This document shows, piece after piece, positions 6,291-49,880 of a DNA stretch of 64,000 nt. Within the stretch, counting starts at the first letter, position 1. Every line of letters starts with the position of its first letter. Made by a program: the position numbers and the translations under genes. The stretch lies in the IMG/VR virus record IMGVR_UViG_3300017722_005389. One strand, written 5' to 3'. The notes under the pieces are model-generated. The model made no database searches, was not told the DNA's origin, and saw nothing but the letters and a program-made list of their open reading frames with translations. This DNA comes from a virus (taxonomy: Duplodnaviria; Caudoviricetes).

Positions 6291-7070
6291 TTATTTTTTT
6301 TTATAGAAATTTGGTAATGTGTTTTTTATAGCTGAATCATCGCAATTAAAATTCTTCTTCATTCGTTCTTGTTTTTTGATAAAATATAGTTTTTTAAATT
6401 TTTTGAGATTGGTACGTATGTTATCTGTATCTAATCCAGTTAGATTTCTCAAGCATTCTATTATTCTATTTTTTTCAAATTTTCTTCCGCCACCTGAATC
6501 AAAAAATAAAGCACTGTTTTTCATTATTTCAATAATACCATAACCAATCTTCAATTCATCCTCTTTAAAAATCCCAGAATTTTCATTTGAAACAATTATT
6601 TCTTCCAAAATATTTGAAAATTCTACAAAAAAATCTGATGTAAATGAATCGTATTCATCAATTTGATATGAAAATTTCTCGTCTTCTTCAATAGTAGTTG
6701 AAACTGTATCATAAGATTCTTTCCTGCTAATATTACGTCTTTCCTTTTTCTGTATAGCACTATTTCTATTTCTTATAATGGTTCCAAAGTAACTATACGC
6801 CCTTCCTTTGCCAGGTTCGTATTTTTCTATTTTGGTATGAAGAAAGCTTATCGTATCATTTAGCTGTTCATCAAAAGACATTTCTTTACATTGGAGATTG
6901 TATCTATTGATAATTGCTTCAGCCATTTTGATAAAAGGTTCTTTTAGATAAAATTCATAAAGAACCCTTCGCTCTTCTTCATCTGTAGATTTAAGATATT
7001 GCAATGTTGCAATTTCTTGGTCTTCGTCAAAATATTTTTCATTTTTTCTCTTCCTCCCTCGTTTTGCCAT
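6291..7070 (-). CDS. Phage sigma-factor-like transcription protein (possible late sigma)
   Basis: FIKMAEAIINRY...LNDTISFLHTKIEKYEPGKGRAYSYFGTIIRN matches a sigma70 region 2 pattern. Start placed at MAKRG (7070). Confidence 0.65.
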   Translation of the reverse strand: MAKRGRKRKNEKYFDEDQEIATLQYLKSTDEEERRVLYEFYLKEPFIKMAEAIINRYNLQCKEMSFDEQLNDTISFLHTKIEKYEPGKGRAYSYFGTIIRNRNSAIQKKERRNISRKESYDTVSTTIEEDEKFSYQIDEYDSFTSDFFVEFSNILEEIIVSNENSGIFKEDELKIGYGIIEIMKNSALFFDSGGGRKFEKNRIIECLRNLTGLDTDNIRTNLKKFKKLYFIKKQERMKKNFNCDDSAIKNTLPNFYKKK

Positions 7071-7074
7071 AAAA

Positions 7075-7851
7075 TTATACATAATTTATTTCACGGTCAT
7101 AATCAAAAAAGTATTCTTTTTTAGACATGTTGTACCAGAATTTTTTCTCAACCTCATCCATATCGCTTTGAAGATCGTGAATAGAGCCTGGTATACCGTT
7201 ATAATGTTTATATGTCATTTTAGGGATAACGTAAACCTTTTTTCCAAAATTTAGCAATCTCAAAAGAAATTCGAAATCTCCGAATTTCTTCATTGATGTT
7301 TTAAATTTGCCAACTGCTTTGAATGCCTCTAGTTTGATAGTGAGAGCATTAACATTGAAGTTATAAAGAGGTTTTTCTTTTGTTTTTTGCAAATCGAAAT
7401 ATCCAAATTTCTCCATATTTCCTGTTGCCCAAACACTTTCGTTTGAAAATCCAATCGGATTATCATTAGGATCCACTTCATAAATTAATGGAGTGAATGC
7501 ATCAACTTCTGGATAAGCCTGGATATACTTGTTGATATTCTCAATGTGATTTGGAAACATAATGTCATCCATTTGCAAAATTGAAAAATATGGGGTTAGA
7601 ATTACATCACAAGCAAAATTGATTTGTGAAGCATAATCATGCTTTCCACTATCATTAATCAATGTTACCATTCTAATGGCACGTGGAATTTCTTCAGAAA
7701 GTTTTTCGATTTCTTCGGAAATTTTAGGAGTAACAATTTGTACATAAAAATTAGGATCCTTTTGATTTTTTATAGATTCAATACATTGTACAAAGAATTC
7801 TCTATTGTTATCATTTATTTCATGAATTGGAATAATTACTGTTGTATTCAT
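7075..7851 (-). CDS. Glycosyltransferase, GT2/GT-A fold
   Basis: TVIIPIH start, ILQMDD (DxD-like) and GDFEFLLRL. Confidence 0.85.
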   Translation of the reverse strand: MNTTVIIPIHEINDNNREFFVQCIESIKNQKDPNFYVQIVTPKISEEIEKLSEEIPRAIRMVTLINDSGKHDYASQINFACDVILTPYFSILQMDDIMFPNHIENINKYIQAYPEVDAFTPLIYEVDPNDNPIGFSNESVWATGNMEKFGYFDLQKTKEKPLYNFNVNALTIKLEAFKAVGKFKTSMKKFGDFEFLLRLLNFGKKVYVIPKMTYKHYNGIPGSIHDLQSDMDEVEKKFWYNMSKKEYFFDYDREINYV

Positions 7852-7853
7852 AT

Positions 7854-8930
7854 TTATTGTTCTTGTTTACTTTTAATTTCTTCTAATGTTTTCAATCTTT
7901 TTGCTACAAGGTTCTGAAATGTTTCAAGCGTTTGAGCTTCAAATTTTTCTTTTGAATAGTTATTAGCCGTATCAGCCATAACCTTATAAGTTTCTTGATT
8001 CAAGGTATCTGTGAACCATTCATCTAGGAATTTTGAAATATAATCTGGAATTGCAGAATAATTCAAAAGCCAAATACCGTTTTCTTTTATAGTGTATTTA
8101 CCATCGTCTTCTTTACCCATCCATTCTGGAACCATTTCAGGAATTTTTCCTATAACTGGAACACCGCATTTCATAGATTCAAGAGGGAATGTTCCGAAAG
8201 CTGAAATTTCATCCACCCAAACAGAAAGACAGCATTCGCTAAGATTGCTTGCAAATTGTTGTCTATCCATATTTGATGTCACCACAAATGGAACCCAAGC
8301 ATATTGAGGGTATTGAAGGTGAAATTGTTTTTCAAGTCTTTCGCCTCTGGATTTATCTCTTGTATAAAGGAAAATCTTTGGTGTTTGTGGTTTTTCAGAT
8401 GGTTTGAACTCATCATGAATATAAGGATTCACAACTGAAATATCCATGTTTCTCATGAAGTTTTCAATATGTTCCTTTTGAGCTTGTGTTGTGGTGATAA
8501 CATTTTTGATGCCGAAATTACTCCATCTTGCACCTGCACTCAAATTGAAGAAGATAAGGTCGTATACTTGAGAAATCACAACAGTTTCCCAAGGAAGTTT
8601 GATGTTATTCTGGCGCATATCTGTGAAAAAGGATTCAACCCAAACTTCTGGCAAGAAAAGAAAGTCAGAAGGTTTGACTGTAACTTTTTCAAAAGGAATA
8701 TGTGGAAGTTTGCTGTAGTTGCCACCCATCCATCCTGGAGTCATATATTCTTTGTCGTGAAGAATAAATGATTTGAATCCGAACTTTCTCAAAGATTCAA
8801 CCATATCGTAAATATATGATACAGCTCCACTCGTATTTCCTTTAGTATTTGGAACATAGAAGTAAAAAGAACCTTGATTTTCTTTTAATTCGTTGATAAA
8901 ATCTTCTAAAGTAAGTTGTTTATTTTCCAT
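7854..8930 (-). CDS. Glycosyltransferase, GT-B fold
   Basis: C-terminal SAFGTFPLESMKCGVPVIG resembles the GT4 E-x-F-G-x-x-x-x-E-A-M signature. Confidence 0.8.
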   Translation of the reverse strand: MENKQLTLEDFINELKENQGSFYFYVPNTKGNTSGAVSYIYDMVESLRKFGFKSFILHDKEYMTPGWMGGNYSKLPHIPFEKVTVKPSDFLFLPEVWVESFFTDMRQNNIKLPWETVVISQVYDLIFFNLSAGARWSNFGIKNVITTTQAQKEHIENFMRNMDISVVNPYIHDEFKPSEKPQTPKIFLYTRDKSRGERLEKQFHLQYPQYAWVPFVVTSNMDRQQFASNLSECCLSVWVDEISAFGTFPLESMKCGVPVIGKIPEMVPEWMGKEDDGKYTIKENGIWLLNYSAIPDYISKFLDEWFTDTLNQETYKVMADTANNYSKEKFEAQTLETFQNLVAKRLKTLEEIKSKQEQ

Positions 8931-8939
8931 TGTATTATT

Positions 8940-9734
8940 TTAGTTAATCTGTTTTTTGAAGTAGTTGTTTATATCGTTAATAGAGTTAAATTCAAAAATT
9001 CTGTCACCTTTTATTTCTTTATTTTGTTCAGTGACAATTTTCAAGCAAATCTTTTTTTCAGGCTTTGTTTTGATAATGTAAGGGTCAGCTGTAATGATGA
9101 TGTCATACAGTTCCCAAATCTTTGAATAATCATAAAGGAATTTGATGTTGTTTCCTTTGAAATTATTTTGTGCGAGAAATAATAAAGTTGCAGGTTTGCT
9201 GTTTTCTCTTTCCTGGCTGACGATTGTGATTGTATAACCTTTTTTGGTTAAAGATGAATATAGCTCATCCAAATCAAACATTGCTTTTGAGTAAGTCAAT
9301 GGTGTTCTTGAGAAAATTTCAAATGCCTGGTCTTGATAAAGAAATTCAACAAATTCTTGATGGTCTTTGAATTTGAACATCTTTGTCAATCCAATCGGAT
9401 CCTCTGAATCTGAAATCTCAATAGAAGTTCTTTCAACTTCCAAAGAAACCTCTTCAGTTTCCCAAAGATCTACTGGTTTGTCTAATGAATTGTTTGTTAA
9501 ATCAAAAACCTTTAATGGCTCTATTTGCTTCACATTTGCCTCGTCAAGGATTTTCTTTTGCTCTTCTGTAAGAAGGTCTGAAGCAATAGGATTTTTTTCT
9601 TCTATTGAGTGATTTTCGAGGTCAGTATATTCTGTGAATTTTTCATTGATATCTCTTGTGTACATCTCATACGCAAAATCCACCGTTTCATAATGACCTC
9701 GAATAACCTCATTCAATGTAATACCTAATCTCAT
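8940..9734 (-). CDS. HAD-fold 5'(3')-nucleotidase-like protein with degenerate catalytic motifs
   Basis: MRLGITLNEVIR (motif I position), ITIVSQE (motif II) and DIIITADP (motif IV position). Confidence 0.55.
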   Translation of the reverse strand: MRLGITLNEVIRGHYETVDFAYEMYTRDINEKFTEYTDLENHSIEEKNPIASDLLTEEQKKILDEANVKQIEPLKVFDLTNNSLDKPVDLWETEEVSLEVERTSIEISDSEDPIGLTKMFKFKDHQEFVEFLYQDQAFEIFSRTPLTYSKAMFDLDELYSSLTKKGYTITIVSQERENSKPATLLFLAQNNFKGNNIKFLYDYSKIWELYDIIITADPYIIKTKPEKKICLKIVTEQNKEIKGDRIFEFNSINDINNYFKKQIN

Positions 9735-9791
9735 TATCTTTTTTATTGATAATATATAGGTTTCTTTGGTAAAGTAAAATTTATTTATTTA

Positions 9792-10433
9792 TTACAATAA
9801 ATTAGTGTTTTTTAATAGAACATCATCTTTATCTAAAAATAATATTTGCCAATTTTCTCCAAGTGATTTTTGTATATCATTTAAATTTGGTTGATTCTCA
9901 TATACTTCTTCATTAGAATATTCAGTATAAATATATTTGGTTCGATTTAAAGTTTCTTTTGCTCCTTCAAATACTAAATCTTCAGCTCCTTGAACATCCA
10001 TCCATATAAAATCTATAATTTTATTTTTTAAAAAATCAAAATCATCTAATCTAATGGTTTTTATTTTTATTTTTTCTGTAAATTTAACCCACTTATGTAT
10101 AGATAAATGTTTTTTAGGCTTTTTTAAAGAGTTACTTGCAGACCAAGGGTTATTCTTTAATAATTCAATTGGACTTTTACCTTTAAATTCCCCACTAGAT
10201 AGAAAAAAATCCGCTTCTCCATTTTTATTAGAAACAGCAAATTCAAATATTTCTGCAATATTTGTTACACCTGTGTCTTTCAATATCTTTATATTTCTCG
10301 GATCTGGTTCAAATCCGATAATTGTTGATTTTGGAGATATTTCTTTAAAAATTTTTGTATCTGTCCCAAAATGACAGCCGATTTCAACTATTAAATTGAA
10401 ATTATTCGATTTTATAAATTCATATATATTCAT
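9792..10433 (-). CDS. FkbM-family SAM-dependent methyltransferase
   Basis: IVEIGCHFGTDT, GFEPDP and IDFIWMDVQGAE. Start moved to 10433 because of the ATGA overlap with the upstream stop. Confidence 0.9.
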   Translation of the reverse strand: MNIYEFIKSNNFNLIVEIGCHFGTDTKIFKEISPKSTIIGFEPDPRNIKILKDTGVTNIAEIFEFAVSNKNGEADFFLSSGEFKGKSPIELLKNNPWSASNSLKKPKKHLSIHKWVKFTEKIKIKTIRLDDFDFLKNKIIDFIWMDVQGAEDLVFEGAKETLNRTKYIYTEYSNEEVYENQPNLNDIQKSLGENWQILFLDKDDVLLKNTNLL

Positions 10434-11164
10434 AATCTTTTCCAATTTTTTACTCCTAAATCCCATGATAAGTCACCTAAAAACCATGTTTTTGGATGTA
10501 TTATATTTTTTGATTTTGATAGCCATGCACCCCACCAGGCGAAACTACTATTTGATATAACAAAATTTTTACTATGTTGTAATAGTGCAAGTGTGTCCTT
10601 TTCGTTTAAATCTAGAAACACATATTCTTTTTTATTACTACTGAAATTTGAAATACACCAATTTAAATCATCAGAAATGAATATAACTTTATTTATATTT
10701 CCGAATTCATTTATAGCTTTATTATACCAATCCAAATCACAAACTAAAAAATTTTTGTTCTTTACGTAATCTGTTCTTCTAACTTGAACTACTAAATAAT
10801 CTTCCTGAATTTCAATAGTATTTTTTAAAAAGAATGTATTTCTTATTTCTTCAGAAATTTCTAAAAAATAATTTTCATTTTGAAAATATCCGCTAAAACT
10901 ATAATTAGTATTTTTATCTAAAAAATTATAAGGAAAATTTGAGTCATTTTCATATGACCCATAATATATTTTGTCTATACATTTTATATTTTTATCAAGC
11001 TTTTTTTCAGCAATATCAAAAATATCTAACATATATTTTCTAACTTTAGATGGTTTATATTCAAAAAATAATTCACAATTATATTTTTTTTCTAACATTT
11101 TACCAAATGCAAATTGAAACATTTGATTGCCCAAACCATCTGAAAGCATAATATTTATTTTCAT
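10430..11164 (-). CDS. Alpha-1,2-fucosyltransferase-like glycosyltransferase (GT11)
   Basis: GLGNQMFQ, VQVRRTDY (HVRRGDY-like), FISDD and NSSFAWWGAWL. Confidence 0.9.
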   Translation of the reverse strand: MKINIMLSDGLGNQMFQFAFGKMLEKKYNCELFFEYKPSKVRKYMLDIFDIAEKKLDKNIKCIDKIYYGSYENDSNFPYNFLDKNTNYSFSGYFQNENYFLEISEEIRNTFFLKNTIEIQEDYLVVQVRRTDYVKNKNFLVCDLDWYNKAINEFGNINKVIFISDDLNWCISNFSSNKKEYVFLDLNEKDTLALLQHSKNFVISNSSFAWWGAWLSKSKNIIHPKTWFLGDLSWDLGVKNWKRL

Positions 11165-11736
11165 TAAACTTTTTTAAAAATCATAATTGTATCTCTAAAC
11201 CATGTTGCATTAGTTGCACTATTTCTTAATTTAGTTGAAGCCTCAATTTCATAAGAATAACCTCTTTTTTGTAATTCTGAAACAACATAGTCATTATTTT
11301 GACAATTTACATGTCCACTTCCAGGTTGACCGATAATAGCCCAACTTAAAATAATTAAATTATTTGAATGATTGCAAATATTATTTATGAAAATTTGTTC
11401 ATATTCCTTTGGGATATGCTCACCTACTTCTAAACTCAATACACAATCAACCTTTTTACTTAAATTGAACTCTTTTGATAAATCAAGAACTTTTCCTATA
11501 CCATTTGTAAGCATTTCAGTATTTGGATTACCATCATATGCTTCACAAAAAATATTTTCTTTTATTATTGATTTTGCATAATCTCCCATACCACATCCAA
11601 AATCAATCAATGTTTTTACATTTTTTTCTTTCAAATAAGTAATTAAAGAATTGCATAAAGCAATATCATGTACATGTCCTATGCCTGAGTTTGTTTCCCA
11701 GAATCCGTTTTTATTTATTATAAAACTCTTTTTCAT
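11164..11736 (-). CDS. Class I SAM-dependent methyltransferase
   Basis: LIDFGCGMG, SLEVGEHIP and PGSGHVNCQ. Confidence 0.85.
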   Translation of the reverse strand: MKKSFIINKNGFWETNSGIGHVHDIALCNSLITYLKEKNVKTLIDFGCGMGDYAKSIIKENIFCEAYDGNPNTEMLTNGIGKVLDLSKEFNLSKKVDCVLSLEVGEHIPKEYEQIFINNICNHSNNLIILSWAIIGQPGSGHVNCQNNDYVVSELQKRGYSYEIEASTKLRNSATNATWFRDTIMIFKKV

Positions 11737-11749
11737 TTATTTGTTATTT

Positions 11750-12460
11750 TTATTTATATATGATTTCACATTTATTTTTTAAATCGTTAAAAAGCTTTTT
11801 TATTTCATTCTCCTGTTTATTATAATGTACTCCCCATTTAAATTTTTTGTTCTCTTCAGATAGTCTACTATTAAATAGTTTATATCTATCTATTAGATAT
11901 TTTTCAGATAGGTATTTAAAATGAAATAATTTATAGCGTTCTTTAGAATACACTATTTTCCCTGAAGGAGCGCATTTGTGACATCCTGGCGAATAATTAA
12001 TTTCATTTATCTTTTTTTTATTAAATAGAACATTTTTATCATAATATTCAGTTCGAACTCCACTTTTGATGCTGTATAAATCTATAATATCATTATTATT
12101 TAAGTTTATCATATCATACCCTTCAAAATTTATTATAGTAGAATTTGAACGAATTTCATTTTTTAACATATTTTCATCTATGCTTACTAATTCATCGCAA
12201 TCACACACAAGCACCCAATCAGTATTCGAATTTTTCCAACAATTATTTTTTATTTCAAGATATTTTCCTTCAGAAATTTGGTTATTTGAATCGAAATATT
12301 CAATTTTGCAATTATTTTTTTTAGCGATTTCAACTGTTTTATCTGTGGAATAGTTATCGAATACTACGATTTCGCAGCCTGGAAATTTTTTTCTATAATG
12401 ATTAATAAAAAATTCAATCATTAATTCTTCATTATATGTAATAGTATAAATTGTTACCAT
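11750..12460 (-). CDS. Glycosyltransferase, GT2-like
   Basis: TITYNEE, VFDNYSTD and LVCDCDE. Confidence 0.85.
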   Translation of the reverse strand: MVTIYTITYNEELMIEFFINHYRKKFPGCEIVVFDNYSTDKTVEIAKKNNCKIEYFDSNNQISEGKYLEIKNNCWKNSNTDWVLVCDCDELVSIDENMLKNEIRSNSTIINFEGYDMINLNNNDIIDLYSIKSGVRTEYYDKNVLFNKKKINEINYSPGCHKCAPSGKIVYSKERYKLFHFKYLSEKYLIDRYKLFNSRLSEENKKFKWGVHYNKQENEIKKLFNDLKNKCEIIYK

Positions 12461-12473
12461 ATTTTTTGCTTTA

Positions 12474-13154
12474 TTAAATTCTTTCAGTAAGATGACTACA
12501 AGTAATTTTATTGATAACTATTCCTTTATTATTAGTGTTCTTCATAAAATCTGAAATTCTATTCCATAAATCTGCATCTGCAGGATAAATTTTACCTGTT
12601 TCTTCAAATACATCTCGATACCTCAAATTAGTTTTGGAGAAATTGATACAAGTCGCAGATCTAACTATATCTCCGCTTTTTGGATAAAATGGATTATTGA
12701 TATCTTTAGGAAGAACTTGATTATTTATATGATTAGACTTTGTTGTTATAAAAAAATAATCATTAACAAATTTAGAAATTTCTTCTAAGTGATTTGATTC
12801 CCACCAATCATCGTGATCTAAATGGCAAATATGGTAAATATTTTTCTTTAAACACAAATCAATACCATAATTTGTTGCATTAACTCCGCCTGAACACCAT
12901 AATTTTTTATCCCCCAAAGAATACTTATCTCTTTCTTTTGCATAAGGCAAATTAATCGAAAATATTTTTTCTTTAGGAATTATAGATTTAGAAATATTTA
13001 CAAATTCTTCGTTGTTATCATATTTATCTCCGATTAAAAATACTTTGTAATTAGTATAAGTTTGATTTTTTATACTATTTAATGATTTTTGTAAATATTT
13101 TATTGAATTCCCATCTTTTCTTTGATAAGTGGGTATTATTATACCTATAGTCAT
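12474..13154 (-). CDS. Glycosyltransferase, GT2
   Basis: IIIPTYQR, CHLDHDD and PADADLW. Confidence 0.85.
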   Translation of the reverse strand: MTIGIIIPTYQRKDGNSIKYLQKSLNSIKNQTYTNYKVFLIGDKYDNNEEFVNISKSIIPKEKIFSINLPYAKERDKYSLGDKKLWCSGGVNATNYGIDLCLKKNIYHICHLDHDDWWESNHLEEISKFVNDYFFITTKSNHINNQVLPKDINNPFYPKSGDIVRSATCINFSKTNLRYRDVFEETGKIYPADADLWNRISDFMKNTNNKGIVINKITCSHLTERI

Positions 13155-13162
13155 TTTTAAAA

Positions 13163-13750
13163 TTATTTTATTTTTTTTGTTGGAGTTCCAATGTAAGTTC
13201 CAGATTCAGTTATATCTTTAATAACTCCTGAATTTAATCCAATAATAACATAATCACATATTTTAATTTTTTCTTTAGCTGTTGAATTTGTTCCTATATA
13301 TACATAATCACCAATGTTGCAATTTCCTGATACTACAACATTTGGCATTGCAGAAAAAAATTCACCTATTATTGTATCATGCCCAATATGATTTCCTCTA
13401 TTTAAAATGCAGTGTGCACCTATAGAAATATTAGTAGTTAATATACAATTTGCCCCTATAAAAGATCCCTTGCCAATTGTAATATTTTTATCAAATATTT
13501 GTGCTGATGGATGGATAAATGTAAAATATTGAGTCTCTTTTGGTAATTTGTCCACTATTTTTTTTCTAATTTCTGAATCACCTATTGCTACTAAAACTTC
13601 AAATTCATTTATATTGAATTGGCTTAGTGGTAATATTTTAGGATTATTATCTTTTATAAAAATATCATCTACAAAACATGTTAATTCTTCGCCTATTTGT
13701 GAGATTACTTCTTTTGCATGACCCCCATATCCGATTAATGCCTTTTTCAT
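13163..13750 (-). CDS. Sugar acetyltransferase, PglD/NeuD family (left-handed beta-helix)
   Basis: IGYGGHAKE, VAIGD..IRKK, FIHPSA and hexapeptide repeats including HIGHD. Confidence 0.9.
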   Translation of the reverse strand: MKKALIGYGGHAKEVISQIGEELTCFVDDIFIKDNNPKILPLSQFNINEFEVLVAIGDSEIRKKIVDKLPKETQYFTFIHPSAQIFDKNITIGKGSFIGANCILTTNISIGAHCILNRGNHIGHDTIIGEFFSAMPNVVVSGNCNIGDYVYIGTNSTAKEKIKICDYVIIGLNSGVIKDITESGTYIGTPTKKIK

Positions 13751-13754
13751 TTAA

Positions 13755-14477
13755 TTAAACTATTTTTATATATTTACATTCTTTTGTTATTTTCCATACT
13801 TTATTTATAATTGATTTTTTCCAAGTATAATATTTTTCACCCTCTCGATATAAATCCCAGGTTAAATGATAAGCAACATTTTTATTAGTATGAGCCCATT
13901 GTTTATTCAATTCTTTTACTTTTTTATATATGTTTATATCAAGATAATAAACACTCTTTATGTGGTCTAAATCAATACTTCTAAAAGTTAATAAGTTGTT
14001 GCCAGTATTTTTATATATTGGTTCGTATGGAAGATTTCTTAATTTACATTTTTCATTATAATTTTCAATTCCAATAATAGGATTAGGTAAAATATATAAA
14101 TTGTCTAGAAATAAATCTCCCGATGAAACCATTACATTTGGAAAATTTAAATTATGTAATATTTCTTCAAAAAAAGAATGTGAATTATATAAATATAAAT
14201 CCCCATCCGTAATTGTTATATATTCATATTCTTTTAATAAGGGAGTGAAATCTCTTAGAAAAATATTTATAGCATTTGCTGCAATATTTTCTTCAAATTG
14301 TATATAACCTTTTAATTTATTATTATTAGAAATGAAATATTGTTTTATTTCATTTGAACTTGAACTACTATTTTCTATAATAAAAAAATCTATACCATCA
14401 ATATATATTGATTCAAAAGATAATTTAATATGCTCAAAATTTTGAAAAGCGAAAAAAACACAGATATGTTTTTTCAT
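13755..14477 (-). CDS. Putative GT-A-fold glycosyltransferase
   Basis: FFIIENSS, YITITDGDLY (DxD) and AYHLTWDLY; sits inside the glycan island. Confidence 0.5.
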   Translation of the reverse strand: MKKHICVFFAFQNFEHIKLSFESIYIDGIDFFIIENSSSSSNEIKQYFISNNNKLKGYIQFEENIAANAINIFLRDFTPLLKEYEYITITDGDLYLYNSHSFFEEILHNLNFPNVMVSSGDLFLDNLYILPNPIIGIENYNEKCKLRNLPYEPIYKNTGNNLLTFRSIDLDHIKSVYYLDINIYKKVKELNKQWAHTNKNVAYHLTWDLYREGEKYYTWKKSIINKVWKITKECKYIKIV

Positions 14478-14483
14478 TATAAA

Positions 14484-15113
14484 TTATTTAGTATAAATTT
14501 CAAATTTAGATAAATCAGGATAAGGTAATTCTAAATCAGCATTTTCTTTTTTAGAACCATCTGTATTATAGAATTGATTCATAAGGAGCATTCCTCTAGT
14601 TGCTAATTCAGGCATCATATAAAAATTCCAACCTAGCATATCAAGATTGTCTTCATGGTAAGAACATTCATTCATTCCAGAGTATCTAGCTCTTTTAAAC
14701 CATTTATATGCATCTTCATTATCGGTTAAAATTGCTCCACCTTTACTCAATTTAAAATGTTTGTATGGACCTGTAAACGAAATACACATGTGCGTATTTG
14801 GTATATACATATCTGCAGTAAATCTTAATGCTGAATCCCATACATTTGTTGGTTGTAAGCAATATGCTCCTTTTAATGTTGTGCCTTCTACAGGAGCAAA
14901 ATTAACTTTTGCACCTGCATGTATTATTTCACAAGGAACACTTGGATAAGTTCTTGCAGGGATTGTTATTTCTAACCCTGAGACTTTCTCATACATTAAT
15001 GCTAAAAATAGTGCATTACTCTGATTGTCTACAGTTACGACATAAGGTGCATTAGTATATTTTGAAAGAGCATTTTCAAAATCTTCAGTTATTTTATATA
15101 TTCCGTTTGCCAT
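14484..15113 (-). CDS. DegT/DnrJ/EryC1/StrS-family PLP-dependent sugar aminotransferase (compact form)
   Basis: FENALSKY, ALFLAL, WDSA, SF...K...GGAILT and GWNFYM. Confidence 0.85.
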   Translation of the reverse strand: MANGIYKITEDFENALSKYTNAPYVVTVDNQSNALFLALMYEKVSGLEITIPARTYPSVPCEIIHAGAKVNFAPVEGTTLKGAYCLQPTNVWDSALRFTADMYIPNTHMCISFTGPYKHFKLSKGGAILTDNEDAYKWFKRARYSGMNECSYHEDNLDMLGWNFYMMPELATRGMLLMNQFYNTDGSKKENADLELPYPDLSKFEIYTK

Positions 15114-15748
15114 TATTTATATTTACTTTTGAATTTTTGTATTTGTTCTGTAGTTAATTCATGCTTGTTAGACATAGTATTTAAAGTTTGGCTACCTAAA
15201 TGTAATACATTTGAAGTTGGAATGATGCAAGGTATGATTCCAATAGTTTCTAATTGTTTTATAGTAATATTGTCTGCGCACCAAAAAATGTATTCTTCAT
15301 TTAACCCTCCTATTTTATCATAAATAGAGCGTTTCATCATAAAACACCATCCTGAAAAATACTTACCTATTATATTCCCAAATTCAATCTTATTGATATT
15401 TGCTTGTCTCGCATCTTTAGGACATTTGGGACTCATTACGTCATATTGATATTTCATTAATTCTGTAAACCAATTTTTATGAAAAATTAAATCATTATTA
15501 CAAAATACAATCCATTCAGAATTACTTGTTCTTGCAGCTATATTCATAAATTTATTGTAATTAAATTGTTCAGAAATCTTAAGATTCCTTACTCCTTCAA
15601 AATCAGTTTTATTATCAACAACGCAAATATCAAAATCTAAATTCTCACTTTCTTTTAATGATTTTAGACAATTTTCAGTTACTTTTTTTAATTCAGGAGT
15701 TTTACTATCTGAAAGAATTATTATTTGAGCAATTTTTTTAGTTTCCAT
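15113..15748 (-). CDS. Glycosyltransferase, GT2
   Basis: VVDN, FNYNKFMN, FCNNDL, GGLNE and WCADN. Confidence 0.85.
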   Translation of the reverse strand: METKKIAQIIILSDSKTPELKKVTENCLKSLKESENLDFDICVVDNKTDFEGVRNLKISEQFNYNKFMNIAARTSNSEWIVFCNNDLIFHKNWFTELMKYQYDVMSPKCPKDARQANINKIEFGNIIGKYFSGWCFMMKRSIYDKIGGLNEEYIFWCADNITIKQLETIGIIPCIIPTSNVLHLGSQTLNTMSNKHELTTEQIQKFKSKYK

Positions 15749-15762
15749 TTATTAAAATTATA

Positions 15763-17166
15763 TTATTTTCCCATCCAGGCACATACTTTTTTTCTATTTT
15801 TATGATGCTTTTTTAAATAATTTCTTGTTTCTCCTAAAGAAAGCTTTAAATCCAATGAAGAACCAATATCTATTAAAAATAAATCCTGTCTTTCTTTATG
15901 CATTTTATAAATACATATTTTTGTAAATGTCCCTGCCATAAATAAAAATACAGTATTTGGATTTAAAGTTTTACTATAATTAATAATATCGGCTATCATA
16001 TCATAATCATGATACCAAGCATTTACCCCAACTCTGAATTCTTTTAAAATATTATAATTATTATTTTTAAAATATGATGTATCTGCATTTTTATGGCATA
16101 CTAATACTATCTCTTTGTTTTTTATTGATTCTGGAAATTTAGATTCAAATATATCATAGTTTGAATTTACAAATAATGTTGCCCATGTAACATTTAAATC
16201 TGACTGTTCACTATAATTATACATTTTTTTAGATTTATCATTTCCTACACATGTTGGACATGGTAATCCTACATAATAATTATTAGATTTATATTTTATT
16301 GCCTCAGACATTTCATTTCTCAATTTTTGATATTTTGAATCATTGGGATCATACCTATGTTCTCCATTGAATTTTTTACTTAAATCTATAGGAGTATTTT
16401 CAATAATCATCATTTCTCCATCACCAAATCTTGTAAATGAAAATGGGATATTATTATTTATTTTATTTATAATTTTTGTTAAATCTTCCTTGAAATTTTT
16501 TTTACCATTATATTTTGTTTCTAAAAATGTATAGAATTTTTCCTTTAAATTTTTTAATTTTACATACTGGTCATTTCCATCATTTATGATTGTTAAATCA
16601 ATATTACATCCTATCAACTTATAAGAATGTTCATATTTTGCAAAATACGATAACCATAAATCTTCTATAAACGCATATTCTTTAGGTATATTATATAATC
16701 TTTCATCTAAAAATATCGAAGAATCTATTAACATTCCGCCTGTTCCACAATAATCGCATTCTGTAAGATTATTTATTCTAGTTCGATTATAATATGAACC
16801 ATTCATTTTCCAACCAAACCAAGAAATTATAGATTTAGGTTGATACATACTATTAAAGTCTTCTACAAATTTGTTATTGAAAATTTGATCATCATCAATA
16901 AAAATAATTTTAGAAAATTCATTAGCTATTTTTTTAGCATAAAGGAATCTGCCTATACCTCCAACATTAGTTTCAGAATTAATAACTTCAATTTTTAATT
17001 GAGGATAGTTTTTAATTATATTTTCAATAGTCTCCTTTTCTCCAAAATTGTTATTCCATATATGAAGCTTAACATTTTTATATGTTTGAGAGGATAAAAG
17101 ATTTAAGGTTTCTTTCAATCTTGAAACTCTTTTCCATGTACACATTACTATTGCTATAAAAGGCAT
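15763..17166 (-). CDS. Two-domain glycosyltransferase: GT2 plus GT-D fold (DUF1792-like)
   Basis: The N-half has FIDDDQ and EDLWLS; the C-half has PFSFTRFGDGE and LIDIGSSLD, the GT-D signatures. Confidence 0.8.
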   Translation of the reverse strand: MPFIAIVMCTWKRVSRLKETLNLLSSQTYKNVKLHIWNNNFGEKETIENIIKNYPQLKIEVINSETNVGGIGRFLYAKKIANEFSKIIFIDDDQIFNNKFVEDFNSMYQPKSIISWFGWKMNGSYYNRTRINNLTECDYCGTGGMLIDSSIFLDERLYNIPKEYAFIEDLWLSYFAKYEHSYKLIGCNIDLTIINDGNDQYVKLKNLKEKFYTFLETKYNGKKNFKEDLTKIINKINNNIPFSFTRFGDGEMMIIENTPIDLSKKFNGEHRYDPNDSKYQKLRNEMSEAIKYKSNNYYVGLPCPTCVGNDKSKKMYNYSEQSDLNVTWATLFVNSNYDIFESKFPESIKNKEIVLVCHKNADTSYFKNNNYNILKEFRVGVNAWYHDYDMIADIINYSKTLNPNTVFLFMAGTFTKICIYKMHKERQDLFLIDIGSSLDLKLSLGETRNYLKKHHKNRKKVCAWMGK

Positions 17167-17195
17167 TTCTAATATTTTGGTATCTCTATATTTTT

Positions 17196-18863
17196 TTATT
17201 TCACCCGACTTAAATGCATTATCAATTTTTTTATATATTTTTGCGCTACTTTATGTTTTTCCGATTTATAAACTTTTTGAGTGCCTTCAGGTCTAACATC
17301 ATTATATATGTAATGCATTTTATTTATTTTATGAACTTGGTCGCTATAACACTGAGCTAAAATACCCATAGTTAAACATACGTCAGTGCAGAATTTATAC
17401 CATTCGCCTTTTTCATCTTTTAATATGTGTTCTGGGACTTTTTGGGCTACTCCAACTTTAAATGTTCTTAAAGGTGGACATGAAAATCCTTTTCCAGAAT
17501 AATCTACATTATTTATTGTTTCGTTTCCATATGTTCCAGCATTTAATATTTTTCCTGTGGAAACAAATTTAAAATTACCGAAGGTAATTAAACATTCTTT
17601 ATTTTTTAAATAATGATTTGATATATCTAAAAATGTATCATTTGTGACAGTATCATCTAAATCTATCATCAATGCGATTGCATCAGGATCTTTTAATTGT
17701 GAAATGATTAAATTTCTACTGTATGCAGCACCATAATTTTTATTATTTTGATAGATTTTTACTTTAGGATCATTGTTTGCAATTTGCTTTAAAATTTTAT
17801 ATGTTTTATCGTTAGAACCATCATCAAGCATGTGTATAGTGTAATCATAATTTCCAGGTATCTGATTATTTAAAGAATTATACGTATGCATCGCAAATTT
17901 TTCACAATTCCATCCAACTGAAACTATTTCAAGTTTTATTTTTTTGCCTTCAACAATATTAGGTACATAACTATTAATATTACTTCTGCTATTACTTTTA
18001 CTATTACTTTTACTATTACTTTTCAAATGATTCAAAACCGATACCCCATTAATTTCAGAAGAATTATTATGCACTTTATTAAGCATGTCAGTGTTAGCAC
18101 TAACATTAACATCATTCCTTTGACCGAGCCCAATTCCTCCTAAGCAAATTAATGCTTCCTTAATAATTCTTTTATCTACAGTTTTTGCCCATACTTTCTG
18201 AATAAACCTAAAATCTCCACATTTCCATCCATCCCATTTGATAGTTTTAGCAACACCTGAATGAACTGCAAAACATTGGGAACTGATTCTTGCCAATCTT
18301 GGAGGTTTTCCAAGTTCCTGTAAAGAAGGCAAAAGTCCTCCATTTGGATATTTCATCTGCCAAAGAAGCATATCCGTATTACTTCTGGCAATATTTGCCA
18401 CCTTTTGTAATACATTGTTGTCTGCAAGATAATCATCGTCATCTAATATTATGATCCATCCATCGTTTACTTTTTCGATAAGTTTGTTAAGATAGAGATT
18501 ATATATGAAACGTGGACCAGTCTTTGGATCTGGAATATCAGCTTCCTTAGAAATCACATTCTTATCCATAAAGAAATAATCCACACCACATTCCTTTACA
18601 TATTCTTCATCTTGTAAATTATCAATAGAAACAATATGTCTTACATTCTTATATGTTTGATTTTTTACAGATTCATGACATCTTTTGAAAGCTAAAGGTC
18701 TTCCAGATGTTCTTGTAAGAATATTTATCAGAGGTATAGGTATTTCAACTTTATTTATCACGATTTTTGCTTTTGATTGTACAGGTTTTATTGCACTTGG
18801 GGGTGTTTTTATGATGGTACCTTTATTACCATTTCTGGTTGTAAGTTTTTGAATATGTTTCAT
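17196..18863 (-). CDS. Tandem double GT2 glycosyltransferase
   Basis: Two GT-A domains (ILDDDD; LDDGSND...IDLDD) joined by an SNSK-repeat linker. Confidence 0.85.
   Translation of the reverse strand: MKHIQKLTTRNGNKGTIIKTPPSAIKPVQSKAKIVINKVEIPIPLINILTRTSGRPLAFKRCHESVKNQTYKNVRHIVSIDNLQDEEYVKECGVDYFFMDKNVISKEADIPDPKTGPRFIYNLYLNKLIEKVNDGWIIILDDDDYLADNNVLQKVANIARSNTDMLLWQMKYPNGGLLPSLQELGKPPRLARISSQCFAVHSGVAKTIKWDGWKCGDFRFIQKVWAKTVDKRIIKEALICLGGIGLGQRNDVNVSANTDMLNKVHNNSSEINGVSVLNHLKSNSKSNSKSNSRSNINSYVPNIVEGKKIKLEIVSVGWNCEKFAMHTYNSLNNQIPGNYDYTIHMLDDGSNDKTYKILKQIANNDPKVKIYQNNKNYGAAYSRNLIISQLKDPDAIALMIDLDDTVTNDTFLDISNHYLKNKECLITFGNFKFVSTGKILNAGTYGNETINNVDYSGKGFSCPPLRTFKVGVAQKVPEHILKDEKGEWYKFCTDVCLTMGILAQCYSDQVHKINKMHYIYNDVRPEGTQKVYKSEKHKVAQKYIKKLIMHLSRVK
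17989..18023 (+). repeat. 12-bp tandem repeat (CTATTACTTTTA x ~3) encoding the KSNS linker
   Basis: Direct reading; translates on the minus strand as KSNSKSNSKSNSRSN. Confidence 0.85.
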
Positions 18864-20353
18864 CCTAACTGTACTATGAAGTTTTTAAGTTTCTTTTGGT
18901 ATTTTGAGAATTTAGGGGCAATAAGATTTATGGCTACTTTCTGTTCATTTCTTAATTTTTCAACGTCTTTTTTATCTGAAATTTCATTAGTAAAACAAGC
19001 AGCTTCTCCCACATAAATATTCTTATAATTCCTTAAAATACATTCTATACTCAAAAGAATGTCTTCATAACTTTCTTCAGGGCTTGTATCAAATCCTCCA
19101 ATCCCTATAAACAAAGCCTTTCTAATCATAAAAAAGTTTTTAGTATTGCCAAAAATATTTTCTTCTTTTTTGAAAGAGGCTCCAAAAACGGTTCTTATTC
19201 CTTGATTAGTGAATCCCATTCGGTTTTCTTTATTCATATAACAGACAATGCCTCCATGTTGGATTTTATTGTCTTTGAAATGTAATCTACACCCTACTGT
19301 TCCAATTTCTTTTTTATTCTTAAGACATTCGCTAACCATGATTGAAATTGCATCATTAATCATTTCAATACCACTATCGCAAAATAAAACTAATTCAGTT
19401 CCCTTGTCAATATAATTGAATACTATATCATTGTTAACACTTGCATAATGACTGTAATCATAATATAAAAGGTTAAGTTTTTTATCATAATACACATATT
19501 CTTCAATAGAAGCAATATTTTCTTCATTTGAACCTGTATCCGCAATATAAATCTGGTAATTTGAATAATTTGTCTTTTTAAGACTTTCAATACATTCCTT
19601 TAAACGTTCAAAATTGTCTTTAGAATGAATTATTATAGCTAAAGATGGTTCATTCTTAATATTAACATCTTTATTGCTTACAAAGGGAAATTGATTGATT
19701 TCTAAAGGAAGATTATCTTTATATTTTAGAGTGAATAATTCTCTACTTTTATTCCAATCTTCTGAAACCATTCCAATTGATTCATGTTTTATTTTAAAAT
19801 CGAAAATTACACCTATTTTAACTCCTTCAATTGAATTTCTAAGGCAAAAGGGTATGTCATAAAAATGGAATCCTTTAAATTCTTCATCAAAGTTTGATTT
19901 TATTCTTTCTTTATGAATCGCCATAAATAATCCATCGATACAAGCAACTTGATGTATTTTGCCAGAAGCTTTGTAACTGTAACTCATTTCAGTCCATTTT
20001 CCTTGCTTATCTCGGTGCGCAACTTCGCCTACCATCAAATGTCTTTTTCTCCACCACATTCCTGTTTCATCTATTTCAGTAGTTCCAGCCATTCCTAAAA
20101 TACCGAAATCTGATGAATTAAAATGGTCATAAATGATTTTATCCCAACCTTTTTCTAAATGGATGTCATCGTGAACACAGACTAATATTGGATATTTTGA
20201 TTGTTCAAGAGCAGTATTATATGCTTCCGAAAGAGAGTGTGTATTTTTGTTTACAAATTGTATAATTTCAACATCTGGTAATGTGCAAGTCTTCTGAAGA
20301 ACTTCTTTATATTCATTTGACTCCTCACGAGTTGAAAAGAAAATAGATATCAT
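18860..20353 (-). CDS. Two-domain glycosyltransferase (two GT-A domains)
   Basis: Domain 1 has VCVHDDI and GFHFYD; domain 2 has IADTGS and EDILLS. Confidence 0.85.
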   Translation of the reverse strand: MISIFFSTREESNEYKEVLQKTCTLPDVEIIQFVNKNTHSLSEAYNTALEQSKYPILVCVHDDIHLEKGWDKIIYDHFNSSDFGILGMAGTTEIDETGMWWRKRHLMVGEVAHRDKQGKWTEMSYSYKASGKIHQVACIDGLFMAIHKERIKSNFDEEFKGFHFYDIPFCLRNSIEGVKIGVIFDFKIKHESIGMVSEDWNKSRELFTLKYKDNLPLEINQFPFVSNKDVNIKNEPSLAIIIHSKDNFERLKECIESLKKTNYSNYQIYIADTGSNEENIASIEEYVYYDKKLNLLYYDYSHYASVNNDIVFNYIDKGTELVLFCDSGIEMINDAISIMVSECLKNKKEIGTVGCRLHFKDNKIQHGGIVCYMNKENRMGFTNQGIRTVFGASFKKEENIFGNTKNFFMIRKALFIGIGGFDTSPEESYEDILLSIECILRNYKNIYVGEAACFTNEISDKKDVEKLRNEQKVAINLIAPKFSKYQKKLKNFIVQLG

Positions 20354-20411
20354 TTTTAATTAATATAATTAATTTTCTTATGAAAATAAAAAAGGTCTCT
20401 GATGAGACCTT
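20352..20411. repeat. 60-bp direct repeat, copy 1 (terminator plus promoter-like module)
   Basis: ATTTTTAATTAATATAATTAATTTTCTTATGAAAATAAAAAAGGTCTCTGATGAGACCTT, identical to 21277-21336. Confidence 0.95.
20389..20411 (-). terminator. Rho-independent terminator after ugd
   Basis: Minus strand reads AAGGTCTC-ATCA-GAGACC followed by a T-tract. Confidence 0.75.
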
Positions 20412-20435
20412 AAAATTTATAAATAATAAAAATTC

Positions 20436-21254
20436 TTAATTAATAATGTTTACGTTATCATTCCTCATTTCATTTCTTTCTAATATTGTAGATTCTAAAA
20501 CTTTATGAGGTGTAGAGTATTTTTGCATATATTTTAATAAGGCATTAGTATCTTTTGGAAAACATGCTCCTCCATAGCTTAATTTACCATCAGGACCAGG
20601 AATTTGAGTATGCATGGGATTTATCCAATTGTTTTTAAGCATTAAATTTTTGACTGTATCATAATCAACATTCATTGCGTTACATAATAGATATAGCTCA
20701 TTAAAAAATTGAACTTTTACTGCATAAAAACTATTAGCAAAAATTTTCATACTTTCAGATTCATTTGAAGTAACGATAGATAATTCAGCAGAAGGATAAT
20801 ATTTTAAATAAAAATTCGCTATTATGTCTATATCCGTATGACTACAATTTTTTCCATATCCTATCACAATATGAGATTGATTATGAAAATCATCGAAGGC
20901 TGTTCTTTGTGTTAAGAATTCTGGATTATGAAATATTTTTAAAGTTTTGAAATTATCTGAATAATATTCAGTTGACGTTGGTTCTACTGTACTTTTAATT
21001 ATAATTAATCCTGTATACTTATATTCTTCTAATTTTTCTAAAGTTTCAAAAATAGCTGATTTATCATATTCAGATATTTTTTCATTATATGGAGTTGGTA
21101 GAGCTAAAAATATAATATCAGAACTTAAACATTCATCAAAAGATCCGATATTTTTATATTTGTCATGAACTGTAATGTTGGGAATTTTATATTTAGTAAA
21201 ACTTTCTAACATTGCAGTTCCAACAAATCCTAAGCCTATTATAGAAATTTTCAT
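20436..21254 (-). CDS. ugd: UDP-glucose/GDP-mannose dehydrogenase family protein lacking the C-terminal domain
   Basis: IGLGFVG Rossmann motif, IKSTVEP, HNPEFL, SESMKIFANSF and GGACFPKD with the catalytic Cys; only 272 aa. Confidence 0.85.
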   Translation of the reverse strand: MKISIIGLGFVGTAMLESFTKYKIPNITVHDKYKNIGSFDECLSSDIIFLALPTPYNEKISEYDKSAIFETLEKLEEYKYTGLIIIKSTVEPTSTEYYSDNFKTLKIFHNPEFLTQRTAFDDFHNQSHIVIGYGKNCSHTDIDIIANFYLKYYPSAELSIVTSNESESMKIFANSFYAVKVQFFNELYLLCNAMNVDYDTVKNLMLKNNWINPMHTQIPGPDGKLSYGGACFPKDTNALLKYMQKYSTPHKVLESTILERNEMRNDNVNIIN

Positions 21255-21276
21255 AAGTTATCTTATTATAAATGAT

Positions 21277-21336
21277 ATTTTTAATTAATATAATTAATTT
21301 TCTTATGAAAATAAAAAAGGTCTCTGATGAGACCTT
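21277..21336. repeat. 60-bp direct repeat, copy 2
   Basis: Identical to 20352-20411. Confidence 0.95.
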
Positions 21337-21339
21337 TTT
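21313..21339 (-). terminator. Rho-independent terminator, potentially bidirectional
   Basis: AAAAAAGGTCTC-TGAT-GAGACCTTTTT. Confidence 0.8.
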
Positions 21340-21348
21340 GTTATAATC

Positions 21349-22326: not shown

Positions 22327-22359
22327 TCTTTTTATATAAATATTCTTTTGTAAAACAAA

Positions 22360-22390
22360 AAAAAAATCTACTTATGAAGTAGATTTTTTT
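22360..22390. terminator. Bidirectional hairpin terminator
   Basis: AAAAAAATCTACTT-ATG-AAGTAGATTTTTTT perfect stem. Confidence 0.8.
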
Positions 22391-24486: not shown

Positions 24487-24492
24487 AATTTA

Positions 24493-25050: not shown

Positions 25051-25116
25051 TGTGTATATTTTTAAAATGTTGTTCAGAGTAATTAACCTATACTTTCCAA
25101 AGAAAGTTCATATTTT

Positions 25117-29650: not shown

Positions 29651-29682
29651 CGAATCAATATATTTATTATAAATATCTTTAG

Positions 29683-43380: not shown

Positions 43381-43388
43381 TATTTATA
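43381..43388 (+). promoter_or_regulatory. TATTTATA putative late-promoter motif (sheath)
   Basis: 16 nt upstream of the sheath ATG. Confidence 0.55.
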
Positions 43389-43404
43389 ATTAAAATATAA
43401 CAAA

Positions 43405-49855: not shown

Positions 49856-49863
49856 TATTTATA
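49856..49863 (+). promoter_or_regulatory. TATTTATA putative late-promoter motif (tape measure)
   Basis: 17 nt upstream of the ATG, just after a hairpin. Confidence 0.55.
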
Positions 49864-49880
49864 ATAAATAATAATTTGAT

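Follow-up and report, generated by a model that had tools for sequence, protein, structure and literature searches.

Large aquatic myophages are said to have been known since 2005 for sugar genes of the lipopolysaccharide (LPS) type, and P-SSM2 reportedly carries clusters of them. In S-SCSM2R, the 22 LPS-like genes include 13 glycosyltransferases (GTs) (PMC12801897), and pelagimyophages harbour hypervariable, O-chain-like GT islands within a host-recognition cluster (PMC7029224). Here, we describe a glycan-assembly island on the minus strand of an uncultured virus (Duplodnaviria; Caudoviricetes; IMG/VR record IMGVR_UViG_3300017722_005389), located at positions 7075-21254 of the 64,000-nt stretch of DNA that was analysed, henceforth called the window. 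The island is organised as a two-tier locus, in which a conserved core containing a GT4-GT2 pair lies beside a low-GC hot spot of exchangeable sugar cassettes.

Islands of this kind are already known in aquatic T4-like phages. Those of P-SSM2, S-SCSM1, S-SCSM2R and the pelagimyophages resemble the island described here in combining many GTs (GT2, GT10, GT11, GT25 and GT1/4) with epimerases/dehydratases and UGD-like enzymes, in the variation of their content between relatives, in the lack of export machinery and in their T4-related carriers; in all of them, function is predicted from the genes alone. They differ in that the core GT4 and core GT2 of the window match no GenBank phage in sequence searches, and also in their setting: the pelagimyophage islands lie between VrlC and gp14 among the tail fibres, whereas the window island holds no fibre genes and is found beside a gp55-like gene and the GT4-GT2 pair. 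Their hosts belong to another phylum than the predicted host of the window phage, probably Bacteroidota, and the papers describing them favour host-surface or DNA targets. New here are an anchor pair whose synteny extends across the clade, its Agt-like member, a cassette insertion site and conserved short-form enzymes.

The window phage probably belongs to the same lineage as the 'moraphages', described in passages of PMC12619734 as 200-307-kb freshwater jumbo phages with four core GT orthogroups, predicted Bacteroidota hosts and a distant kinship to Rhodothermus phage RM378. In common with these, it has an estimated genome of ~270 kb, a PolB, several lineage-core GTs and a weak match to RM378, the latter confined to the window's sigma-like gene. 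The same passages list the core GTs, but not a cassette hot spot, a core/variable architecture or an Agt-like fold.

Glycosylation of virions, the reading that we favour for the island, has precedents among viruses. The glycans of chlorovirus PBCV-1 and of the mimivirus fibrils are products of virus-encoded, cytoplasmic virion glycosylation. Virions of the mycobacteriophages Che8, Corndog and Myrna are glycosylated (Freeman et al. 2023, as cited in passages of PMC12619734), and the Xanthomonas jumbo phage XacN1, in a paper that itself cites PBCV-1, has its own GTs and at least two virion glycoproteins (PMC5852040). Such viruses share with the window island soluble and often multi-domain GTs together with methyltransferases, virus-encoded NDP-sugar enzymes (GMD, UGD-like, aminotransferase plus N-acetyltransferase) and a clade-specific cluster content. 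In their case the glycan has been demonstrated on particles, whereas the window island is known from its genes alone and no acceptor tag was found on the structural proteins of the window.

The conserved core of the locus

The tight minus-strand run that a preliminary description of this stretch had reported is borne out by the open reading frame (ORF) map, in which 16 co-oriented genes form a continuous string in one orientation, with spacings of -37 to +94 nt and with stops and starts that overlap. Domains were called with Pfam and NCBIfam at their cut-offs, and with the ESM Atlas for families without a Pfam match. Together, these sources confirm 10 GT genes, several of them two-domain, with 13 GT domains in total, and recover all of the GT families named before, i.e. 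GT2, GT-B, GT11 and GT-D (the GT-D-like domain at 29.4 bits, cut-off 27). The downstream end of the string is formed by an NT5C-like protein, a GT4 and a GT2, which is followed and overlapped by a 263-aa sigma-like protein, in this order:

8940-9734, minus strand: NT5C/HAD-like probable pseudo-enzyme of the conserved frame; its ESM Atlas neighbours carry NT5C
7854-8930, minus strand: core GT4 (GT-B fold), Agt/AmGGT-like; Pfam match below the cut-off, AlphaFold2 (AF2) model clearly GT4
7075-7851, minus strand: core GT2 (GT-A fold); Pfam GT2 27.8 bits; overlaps the sigma-like gene by 8 nt
6291-7082, minus strand: gp55-like late sigma factor, directly downstream of the core GT pair; profile match to T4 gp55

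The nearest relatives in IMG/VR are the contigs G001 (49 kb, 18% complete according to CheckV) and G002, identical to locus L006 (184.5 kb, 68%), which is syntenic with the window over nearly its entire length; the genome size given above follows from these two CheckV figures. The four-gene block is conserved at ~50% identity in L006 and L008 and at ~38% in L010, L013 and L014, and it is repeated on the short contig L007. The core GT4 is the most conserved protein of the island, with more than 1155 metagenomic homologs, and its profile retrieves at least 583 IMG/VR loci on contigs of up to 362 kb. All 31 of the representative loci show the same succession of GT4, GT2 (~265 aa), sigma-like protein (~247 aa), a protein of ~122 aa and one of 470-710 aa. 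In the core GT2, residues D95 and D96 are nearly invariant across 36 homologs.

The AF2 model of the core GT4 (pLDDT 89.9) finds its best solved match in AmGGT (8xsg; Foldseek E 3e-15, TM 0.74/0.77), with a VIA Z of 31.2 and an rmsd of 2.7 over 316 residues at 16% sequence identity, the next match having a Z of 23. AmGGT shares more than 50% identity with ApAgt/alpha6GlcT; in Actinobacillus, where adhesins are N-glycosylated in the cytoplasm, the soluble GT4 ApAgt elongates the glucose that they carry (PMC12159676). The core GT4 is thus comparable to the second member of the Actinobacillus pair of NGT (HMW1C-like, GT41) and Agt, being compact, soluble and ~350 aa long with AmGGT as its leading match. 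It differs in the low identity, in the lack of a GT41 partner among the families found, in a partner that belongs to GT2 instead, and in the lack of sequon enrichment.

The preliminary description had placed the island directly upstream of sigma-like and spike genes. The first of these neighbours stands: the profile of 6291-7082 matches T4 gp55 in the Protein Data Bank (PDB; 7d7c_F, E 0.0023, over 46-152 / 45-150), a weak Sigma70_r2 match accompanies it, and the position is kept at 31 of 31 loci. The second found no such support: profile searches against the PDB gave no match for the putative spike gene (2739-4034), and none for 4432-5841. Hydrophobic stretches in the latter were considered as transmembrane (TM) segments and dismissed, because charges interrupt them.

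The NT5C-like protein of the block is probably a pseudo-enzyme that has been kept beside the GT4 across the clade, as judged from its motifs. Homologs are found at the equivalent position in L006, L008, L010, L013 and L014, and another in L007. Motif I, which is DxD in the NT5C/HAD-like family, reads ITLNEV, VSINGV, ISLNGI or ISIDGV in seven homologs: T/S and N/D replace the two Asp residues, the nucleophile Asp is missing in all, and L014 keeps the second Asp. An assignment of 8940-9734 as a GT was ruled out on the same grounds, the protein being NT5C/HAD-like without the nucleophile. The window copy additionally has an insertion of ~60 aa rich in acidic residues.

Turnover of sugar cassettes

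Upstream of this block, the frame genes of the island enclose a variable centre with a GC content of 24-26%, compared with 28-32% in the flanking DNA and ~28% in the window as a whole. From upstream to downstream, the features are:

21349-22326, minus strand: beta-lactamase/transpeptidase-fold protein on the upstream side of the island; Pfam Beta-lactamase E 1e-25
21268-21336, minus strand: direct-repeat copy 2 (69-nt repeat), with a terminator hairpin, 3' of the beta-lactamase-fold gene
20436-21254, minus strand: short nucleotide-sugar dehydrogenase-like (UGD-like) cassette, 272 aa; covers positions 75-299 of 413 in TIGR03026
20343-20411, minus strand: direct-repeat copy 1 (69-nt repeat family D1), with a terminator hairpin (20411-20392) and an AT-rich leader, directly adjoining the start codon (ATG) of the first GT gene
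18860-20353, minus strand: two-domain Glyco_tranf_2_5 + GT2, frame gene and first GT of the island; Pfam E 2.7e-29 and 2.7e-14
17196-18863, minus strand: two-domain GT2 + GT2, frame gene, partly conserved; C-terminal GT2 E 2.8e-24, N-terminal GT2 28.4 bits
15763-17166, minus strand: two-domain GT2 + GT-D-like; Pfam GT2 30.2 bits, GT-D-like domain as above
15113-15748, minus strand: GT2, variable cassette; Pfam GT2 32.3 bits
14484-15113, minus strand: short DegT-like PLP aminotransferase, 209 aa, large domain only; Pfam DegT E 3.7e-15
13755-14477, minus strand: GT2-like GT-A protein without a Pfam match; ESM Atlas only, features 0.98 to GT2 clusters
13163-13750, minus strand: NeuD/PglD/PglB/VioB/PerB-type sugar N-acetyltransferase; TIGR03570 161.2 bits, PglD_N and hexapeptide repeats
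12474-13154, minus strand: GT2, match limited to the N-terminal part; Pfam GT2 E 6e-9, 36.5 bits
11750-12460, minus strand: GT2; Pfam Glyco_tranf_2_4 E 5e-11, GT2 E 1.6e-10
11164-11736, minus strand: probable class I SAM methyltransferase; Methyltransf_23 25.2 bits (cut-off 27) and weaker methyltransferase families
10430-11164, minus strand: GT11 (alpha-1,2-fucosyltransferase family), variable cassette; Pfam Glyco_transf_11 E 3.5e-20
9792-10466, minus strand: FkbM-family SAM methyltransferase, variable cassette; Pfam Methyltransf_21 E 1e-17

The Atlas model of 13755-14477 agrees with its assignment, with TM scores of 0.69-0.71 to GT2 families over residues 1-230. Most of the tailoring enzymes had been named before: the FkbM methyltransferase is upheld, the class I methyltransferase is only probable given its score below the cut-off, and the PglD/NeuD acetyltransferase passes its threshold of 160.8 bits. 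DegT and UDP-sugar dehydrogenase are the right families for the remaining two, but neither is a standard enzyme, both being short forms.

Between the two flanks, the window, G001, G002 and L008 hold different cassettes. G001 is 97-99% identical to the window in all flanking proteins and 99.6% in the first GT (18860-20353). Between this GT and the DegT-like gene, G001 carries a 510-aa GT (65% identical to 17196-18863), a 229-aa GT2, a GT25, another GT2, a full-length GDP-mannose 4,6-dehydratase (GMD; E 8e-119) and a GT10-like gene, the GT2 of 15113-15748 being replaced. On the 3' side of the DegT-like gene, an unrelated 243-aa gene takes the place of 13755-14477, and the acetyltransferase gene that follows has its 5' part in common with G001 at 83% nucleotide identity. 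The FkbM gene has no counterpart at its position in G002, and G001 ends before this part. More distantly, 17196-18863 is 48-56% and 18860-20353 is 50-52% identical to their counterparts in L006 and L008, where single proteins of 772/794 aa unite the GT-D part with the adjacent GT. The beta-lactamase-fold protein is 99.4% identical in G001 and 54% in L006, and absent from L008.

The UGD-like gene reveals an insertion site. It forms a discrete cassette between the two 69-nt direct repeats, each with its terminator hairpin, and a three-way alignment reveals in G001 the exact empty site with a single copy of the repeat. Downstream of the first repeat, the island block has no internal intrinsic terminator apart from one weak terminator-like site at 10961-10940, which is the sole such element between 20392 and 3906; throughout this distance the island is co-oriented with the downstream gp55-like and putative baseplate-like genes.

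A survey of the hot spot covered the 10 kb upstream of the core at 12 diverse loci (138 ORFs, Pfam counts). NAD-epimerase/dehydratase is the largest family with 14 members, followed by GMD (11), GT2 and PhoH (10 each), RmlD (8), FkbM (6), UDP-GlcNAc 2-epimerase and DegT (4 each), GT11 and GT25 (2 each) and NeuB (1). Analogous sugar islands, which also differ in content, are present at 12 of the 12 loci, and because sugar families dominate these upstream regions, the window island fills a sugar-cassette hot spot that is clade-wide.

This recurrence bears on the possibility, raised along with the island itself, that the contig is a chimera of phage DNA and a host O-antigen locus. The GC content of the variable centre, below that of the flanks, would be in keeping with such an artefact. 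The explanation is nevertheless effectively refuted: the frame, with phage genes on both sides, is repeated in independent assemblies from different samples (G001, G002/L006, L008 and L007), the genes form one co-oriented string with overlapping stops and starts, and analogous islands occupy every locus surveyed. By its sheath, gp19-like, gp55-like, PolB and helicase genes, which lie on both sides of the island, the carrier is a T4-related contractile-tailed phage. The window encodes a 1437-aa PolB, a helicase, a T5orf172-domain protein, a gp19-like tube protein (weak match) and a 1076-aa tail sheath that is linked to T4-like sheaths by its C-terminal domain and by tblastn matches. The window's own capsid gene lies outside the window; in the relative L013, a Gp23-family capsid gene is found 9 kb from the core pair. 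To judge by sequence comparison, there is no close cultured phage: sheath identity reaches at most 29% (to a 484-kb uncultured phage and Microcystis phage Mel-JY01), and the island has no megablast match among GenBank phages.

The short forms of the two sugar enzymes are conserved, and decay into pseudogenes was rejected for both. Homologs of the UGD-like protein number in the thousands; they measure 265-331 aa, are 58-70% identical and have their catalytic motifs intact. The family, which consists of the N-terminal and central domains, yields more than 7000 matches, of which the best 120 are all short. The window protein retains the GxGxxG, NPEFL and GGACFPKD motifs and lacks the UDP-binding C-terminal domain. 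Two short members, L104 and L105, are located on 156- and 503-kb contigs that resemble giant-virus glycan clusters (GFAT, GT25, epimerases, eEF1A-like), and phages and giant viruses may share this enzyme form. Likewise, the DegT-like form of ~210 aa recurs: the G001 copy is 94% identical to that of the window, and the distant locus L013 has one of 213 aa. The lysine motif of the window protein, SFTGPYK, and its DSA motif can be aligned with those of NtdA and perosamine synthases. A succession of GMD, DegT-like enzyme and PglD/PerB-like acetyltransferase in G001 would fit a GDP-N-acetylperosamine-type route. The enzyme families as a whole are consistent with the methylated, acetylated (N-acetyl amino sugar) and fucosylated glycan that had been proposed earlier.

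The acceptor of the glycan

Our analysis supports a soluble, phage-encoded pathway of glycan assembly. None of the 23 ORFs at 6291-26274, and thus no ORF of the island, contains a TM-like segment (Kyte-Doolittle, KD19 maximum 1.39), in line with the soluble cytoplasmic enzyme set first proposed, and a Kyte-Doolittle scan of the ORFs found no convincing membrane protein across the 64-kb window. In the 234 kb of G001 and G002, the flippase family Polysacc_synt/Wzx (PF01943) is absent, as is the priming phosphoglycosyltransferase family Bac_transf (PF02397; PF00953 was not searched). The earlier statement that flippase, Wzy, ABC exporter and membrane proteins are missing therefore holds for the flippase and for membrane proteins; for Wzy and ABC exporters, families that were not searched, the evidence is the lack of membrane proteins in the window.

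Soluble enzymes of this kind could also remodel the host envelope. In that case, they would modify, on the cytoplasmic side of the membrane, undecaprenyl (Und)-linked precursors of host O-antigen, capsule or glycoprotein; priming enzyme, flippase and ligase of the host would export the product, and the altered cell surface would block superinfection or re-adsorption. Bacterial O-antigen GTs are mostly soluble too, so the lack of TM segments does not exclude an action on lipid-linked intermediates of the host. The resemblance to O-antigen and capsule clusters of the Wzx/Wzy or ABC type extends to a hypervariable, low-GC centre, framed by conserved flanks, that encodes soluble GTs along with methyltransferases and NDP-sugar enzymes, to the families involved (GT2, GT4, GT11, GT25, GT10, FkbM, GMD, NeuD/PglD and DegT) and to the replacement of cassettes between near-identical genomes, which could follow host strains. 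Unlike those clusters, the island has no priming enzyme, no flippase and no other membrane protein such as a polymerase, ABC transporter or ligase, and resides in a lytic-type jumbo phage genome; neither the priming nor the flippase family was found in the window or in the 234 kb of relatives. Replacing a surface layer within one lytic cycle would presumably be slow, no experimental case is known for such islands, and the GT4-GT2 core is kept in at least 583 contigs of very different phages although host glycans vary. Although host remodelling is the published reading for the pelagimyophage (PMC7029224) and cyanomyophage (PMC12801897) islands, we consider it rather unlikely here.

The same contrast carries the argument for the explanation that we prefer. 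Since the GT4-GT2 pair is conserved clade-wide, whereas host surface glycans vary, its acceptor should be conserved, and since that acceptor would be the same in all these phages, it should be made by the phage. Our best explanation, a little short of an even chance, is that the phage itself makes the acceptor, most likely a virion protein or several of them, and the match of the modelled core GT4 to an Agt-like elongating GT would lend it indirect support. For the acceptor, the sugars and the timing, we infer the following course. The island enzymes would take nucleotide sugars, host-derived or phage-made (GDP-fucose-type, amino/acetamido deoxy-sugars), and assemble from them, stepwise in the cytoplasm, an oligosaccharide that is methylated, acetylated and specific to the strain. 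The core GT4 and GT2 would act on the conserved phage-made acceptor, i.e. virion protein(s) before or during assembly, which would result in a variable, 'serotype-like' glycan coat. The second tier (~9792-21254), with its GTs, O-methyltransferases, NeuD/PglD N-acetyltransferase, short DegT and short UGD-like enzymes, would supply the cassettes that are swapped by recombination.

Several observations, in addition to the published reading and the solubility of O-antigen GTs, weigh against a virion acceptor. Ser/Thr-rich tracts are absent from the structural proteins of the window and from G002, except for a 14-residue poly-Thr run, NNTTTNTTTTTTGS, near residue 1120 of a 1809-aa protein (56745-62174), and mucin-like tracts as acceptor tags were abandoned when nothing convincing emerged in either. 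NxS/T sequons are not enriched in the structural proteins of the window (observed/expected 0-1.4), the highest excess being that of the same 1809-aa protein (32 vs 23 expected, z 1.8). No initiating protein GT, HMW1C/GT41-like or GtfA-like, is found among the Pfam/NCBIfam matches of the window ORFs scanned, and the window has no 4,6-dehydratase that could feed the aminotransferase. Since AmGGT prefers free oligosaccharides over glycopeptides (PMC12159676), a fold like its own does not single out protein as the acceptor. The core GT2 model (AF2 pLDDT 91.5) is a generic GT-A with many ties at Z ~21 (WrtF, RmlT, TarS/P, heparosan synthase), and the fold search was discarded as a pointer to function because these tied GT2 matches do not discriminate. 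The island's other flank is a beta-lactamase-fold/DUF6794 block with nucleotide metabolism (a GMP-reductase-like gene and a dUTPase). Of the inference originally drawn from this locus, the soluble phage-encoded glycan pathway is therefore retained, whereas its virion acceptor found no backing in Ser/Thr-rich tags, sequon enrichment or an HMW1C-like enzyme. The GT-D-like domain was likewise dropped as a pointer to a glycoprotein acceptor: its homologs number only 10, each of them a phage-like fusion or a separate protein, and none is placed in a known protein-glycosylation setting.

The gene neighbourhood raises the question of DNA as the acceptor. In T4, the gene for DNA alpha-glucosyltransferase (a-gt) adjoins gene 55, much as the core pair of the window lies beside its gp55-like gene. 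Under such a scheme the GTs, especially the GT4-GT2 pair and the separate GT-B at 25117-26274, would glycosylate a modified base as a defence against restriction or CRISPR. A conserved acceptor fits DNA as well as protein, and the NT5C-like protein, the dUTPase, the GMP-reductase-like gene and, in relatives, PhoH are neighbours of a suitable kind. Known phage systems of DNA glycosylation (T4 alpha-/beta-GT; arabinosyl-5hoC in RB69/DLP3, PMC13326640; MT/5mYOX/GT, bioRxiv 10.1101/2023.12.21.572611) also use soluble, recruited GTs near nucleotide-metabolism genes, taken from LPS/teichoic-acid GT families and building mono- to trisaccharides (bioRxiv 10.1101/2023.12.21.572611; PMC13326640). Against this, 13 GT domains with O-methyl, N-acetyl and amino tailoring go far beyond known DNA glycans, which have at most three sugars, and the 50 best structural matches to the core GT4 do not include T4 alpha-/beta-GT. 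No base-hydroxylating gene was found among the window ORFs scanned; a ThyA-family enzyme (PF00303) was not found in G001 (18% complete) or G002 (68%), and a Tet/JBP (PF12851) search of the relatives gave no match, but its control was silent too. The sole C5-methyltransferase of G002 lies ~100 kb from the island, and the NT5C-like protein lacks its nucleophile. We consider DNA hypermodification improbable.

The preference of AmGGT, which elongates free oligosaccharides processively (PMC12159676), also suits a product that never reaches the virion, such as a free or carrier-bound methylated polysaccharide or glycoside serving in storage, osmoprotection or as a decoy, with the mycobacterial polymethylated polysaccharides, products of soluble GT4 enzymes and methyltransferases, as an analogue. 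One of the better structural matches to the core GT4 is a methylmannose-polysaccharide mannosyltransferase, and GTs combined with methyltransferases without export genes would fit. A cytoplasmic product of this kind has no known benefit for a phage and no known viral precedent, and the strong variation among near-identical phages points to a product that is exposed and selected, not to an internal metabolite. We regard it as quite improbable.

Other genes of the window and implications

Outside the island, one further GT had been noted, and Pfam confirms it as a GT-B:

25117-26274, minus strand: separate GT-B, lineage gene; Pfam Glyco_trans_1_4 and GT1

Its homolog in L010 is 41.5% identical. 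Uncultured huge phages of 735 kb have full-length homologs of 27-35% identity, as do phi92/rV5-like coliphages and phages of Klebsiella and Campylobacter; the enzyme, distinct from the core pair of the island, is widespread among phages. In the neighbouring dUTPase ORF (24493-25050, minus strand), an in-frame TGA at ~24568-24570 corresponds to TGG (Trp) in G001, which reads 25 codons further; the protein has 160 aa in the window and 185 aa in G001, and the difference may stem from a recent nonsense mutation, from an error in sequencing or from read-through at this site.

A short motif is a candidate promoter of the phage. TATAAATA and its complement are enriched in the window (43 vs 18±4), and in the sense direction (A)TATTTATAAT is found 8-25 nt 5' of the sheath gene and of several others (e.g. 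at 43381-43390, 49856-49865, 418-427 and 29666-29675). It is possibly read by the gp55-like sigma factor; the first gene of the island is without TATTTATAAT.

Several structural and accessory proteins have features of their own. Of the sheath (43405-46635), only approximately the C-terminal 60% (residues 430-1073) can be aligned to known sheaths, and the N-terminal ~430 aa form an unexplained extension, which is the richest in Ser+Thr (16.5%) and the poorest in Lys (3.3%) when set against the large proteins of the window. The 1809-aa protein at 56745-62174 ends in an M15 peptidase domain, as a protein of the tape-measure or tail-lysin type might. A Cys-rich protein of 479 aa (433-1872) is 31-72% identical in L006/G002, L008 and L010, a few genes past the GT4-GT2-sigma block, and ORFs of similar size are found at this position in many other such loci. 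A leucine-rich-repeat (LRR) protein of 531 aa is encoded at 32335-33930, with shorter LRR paralogs near the island in G002 (L006 68-643, 4225-4857 and 4896-5777).

The question of the target of such islands is sharpened by this locus, with its variable cassettes at a fixed hot spot beside a conserved pair, and the GT4-GT2 pair is a target for biochemistry that can be expressed without phage culture. In its widest form, the virion reading would ascribe two-tier virion glycosylation to the aquatic jumbo myophages of a very large and entirely uncultured clade, represented by at least 583 IMG/VR contigs, in which a universal GT4-GT2 'primer' and a late sigma factor adjoin a cassette hot spot that sets the glycan 'serotype' of the strain; this broad picture is possible but doubtful. 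A two-tier system of this type would be a viral counterpart of bacterial O-antigen diversity, with a toolkit partly common with giant viruses, as the short UGD-like enzyme illustrates. Finally, should the virion prove to be the acceptor, strain-specific glycan coats would cover phage particles in lakes and oceans, which would bear on adsorption, stickiness, grazing, decay and recognition by host defences, and on the limits of viral 'species'.

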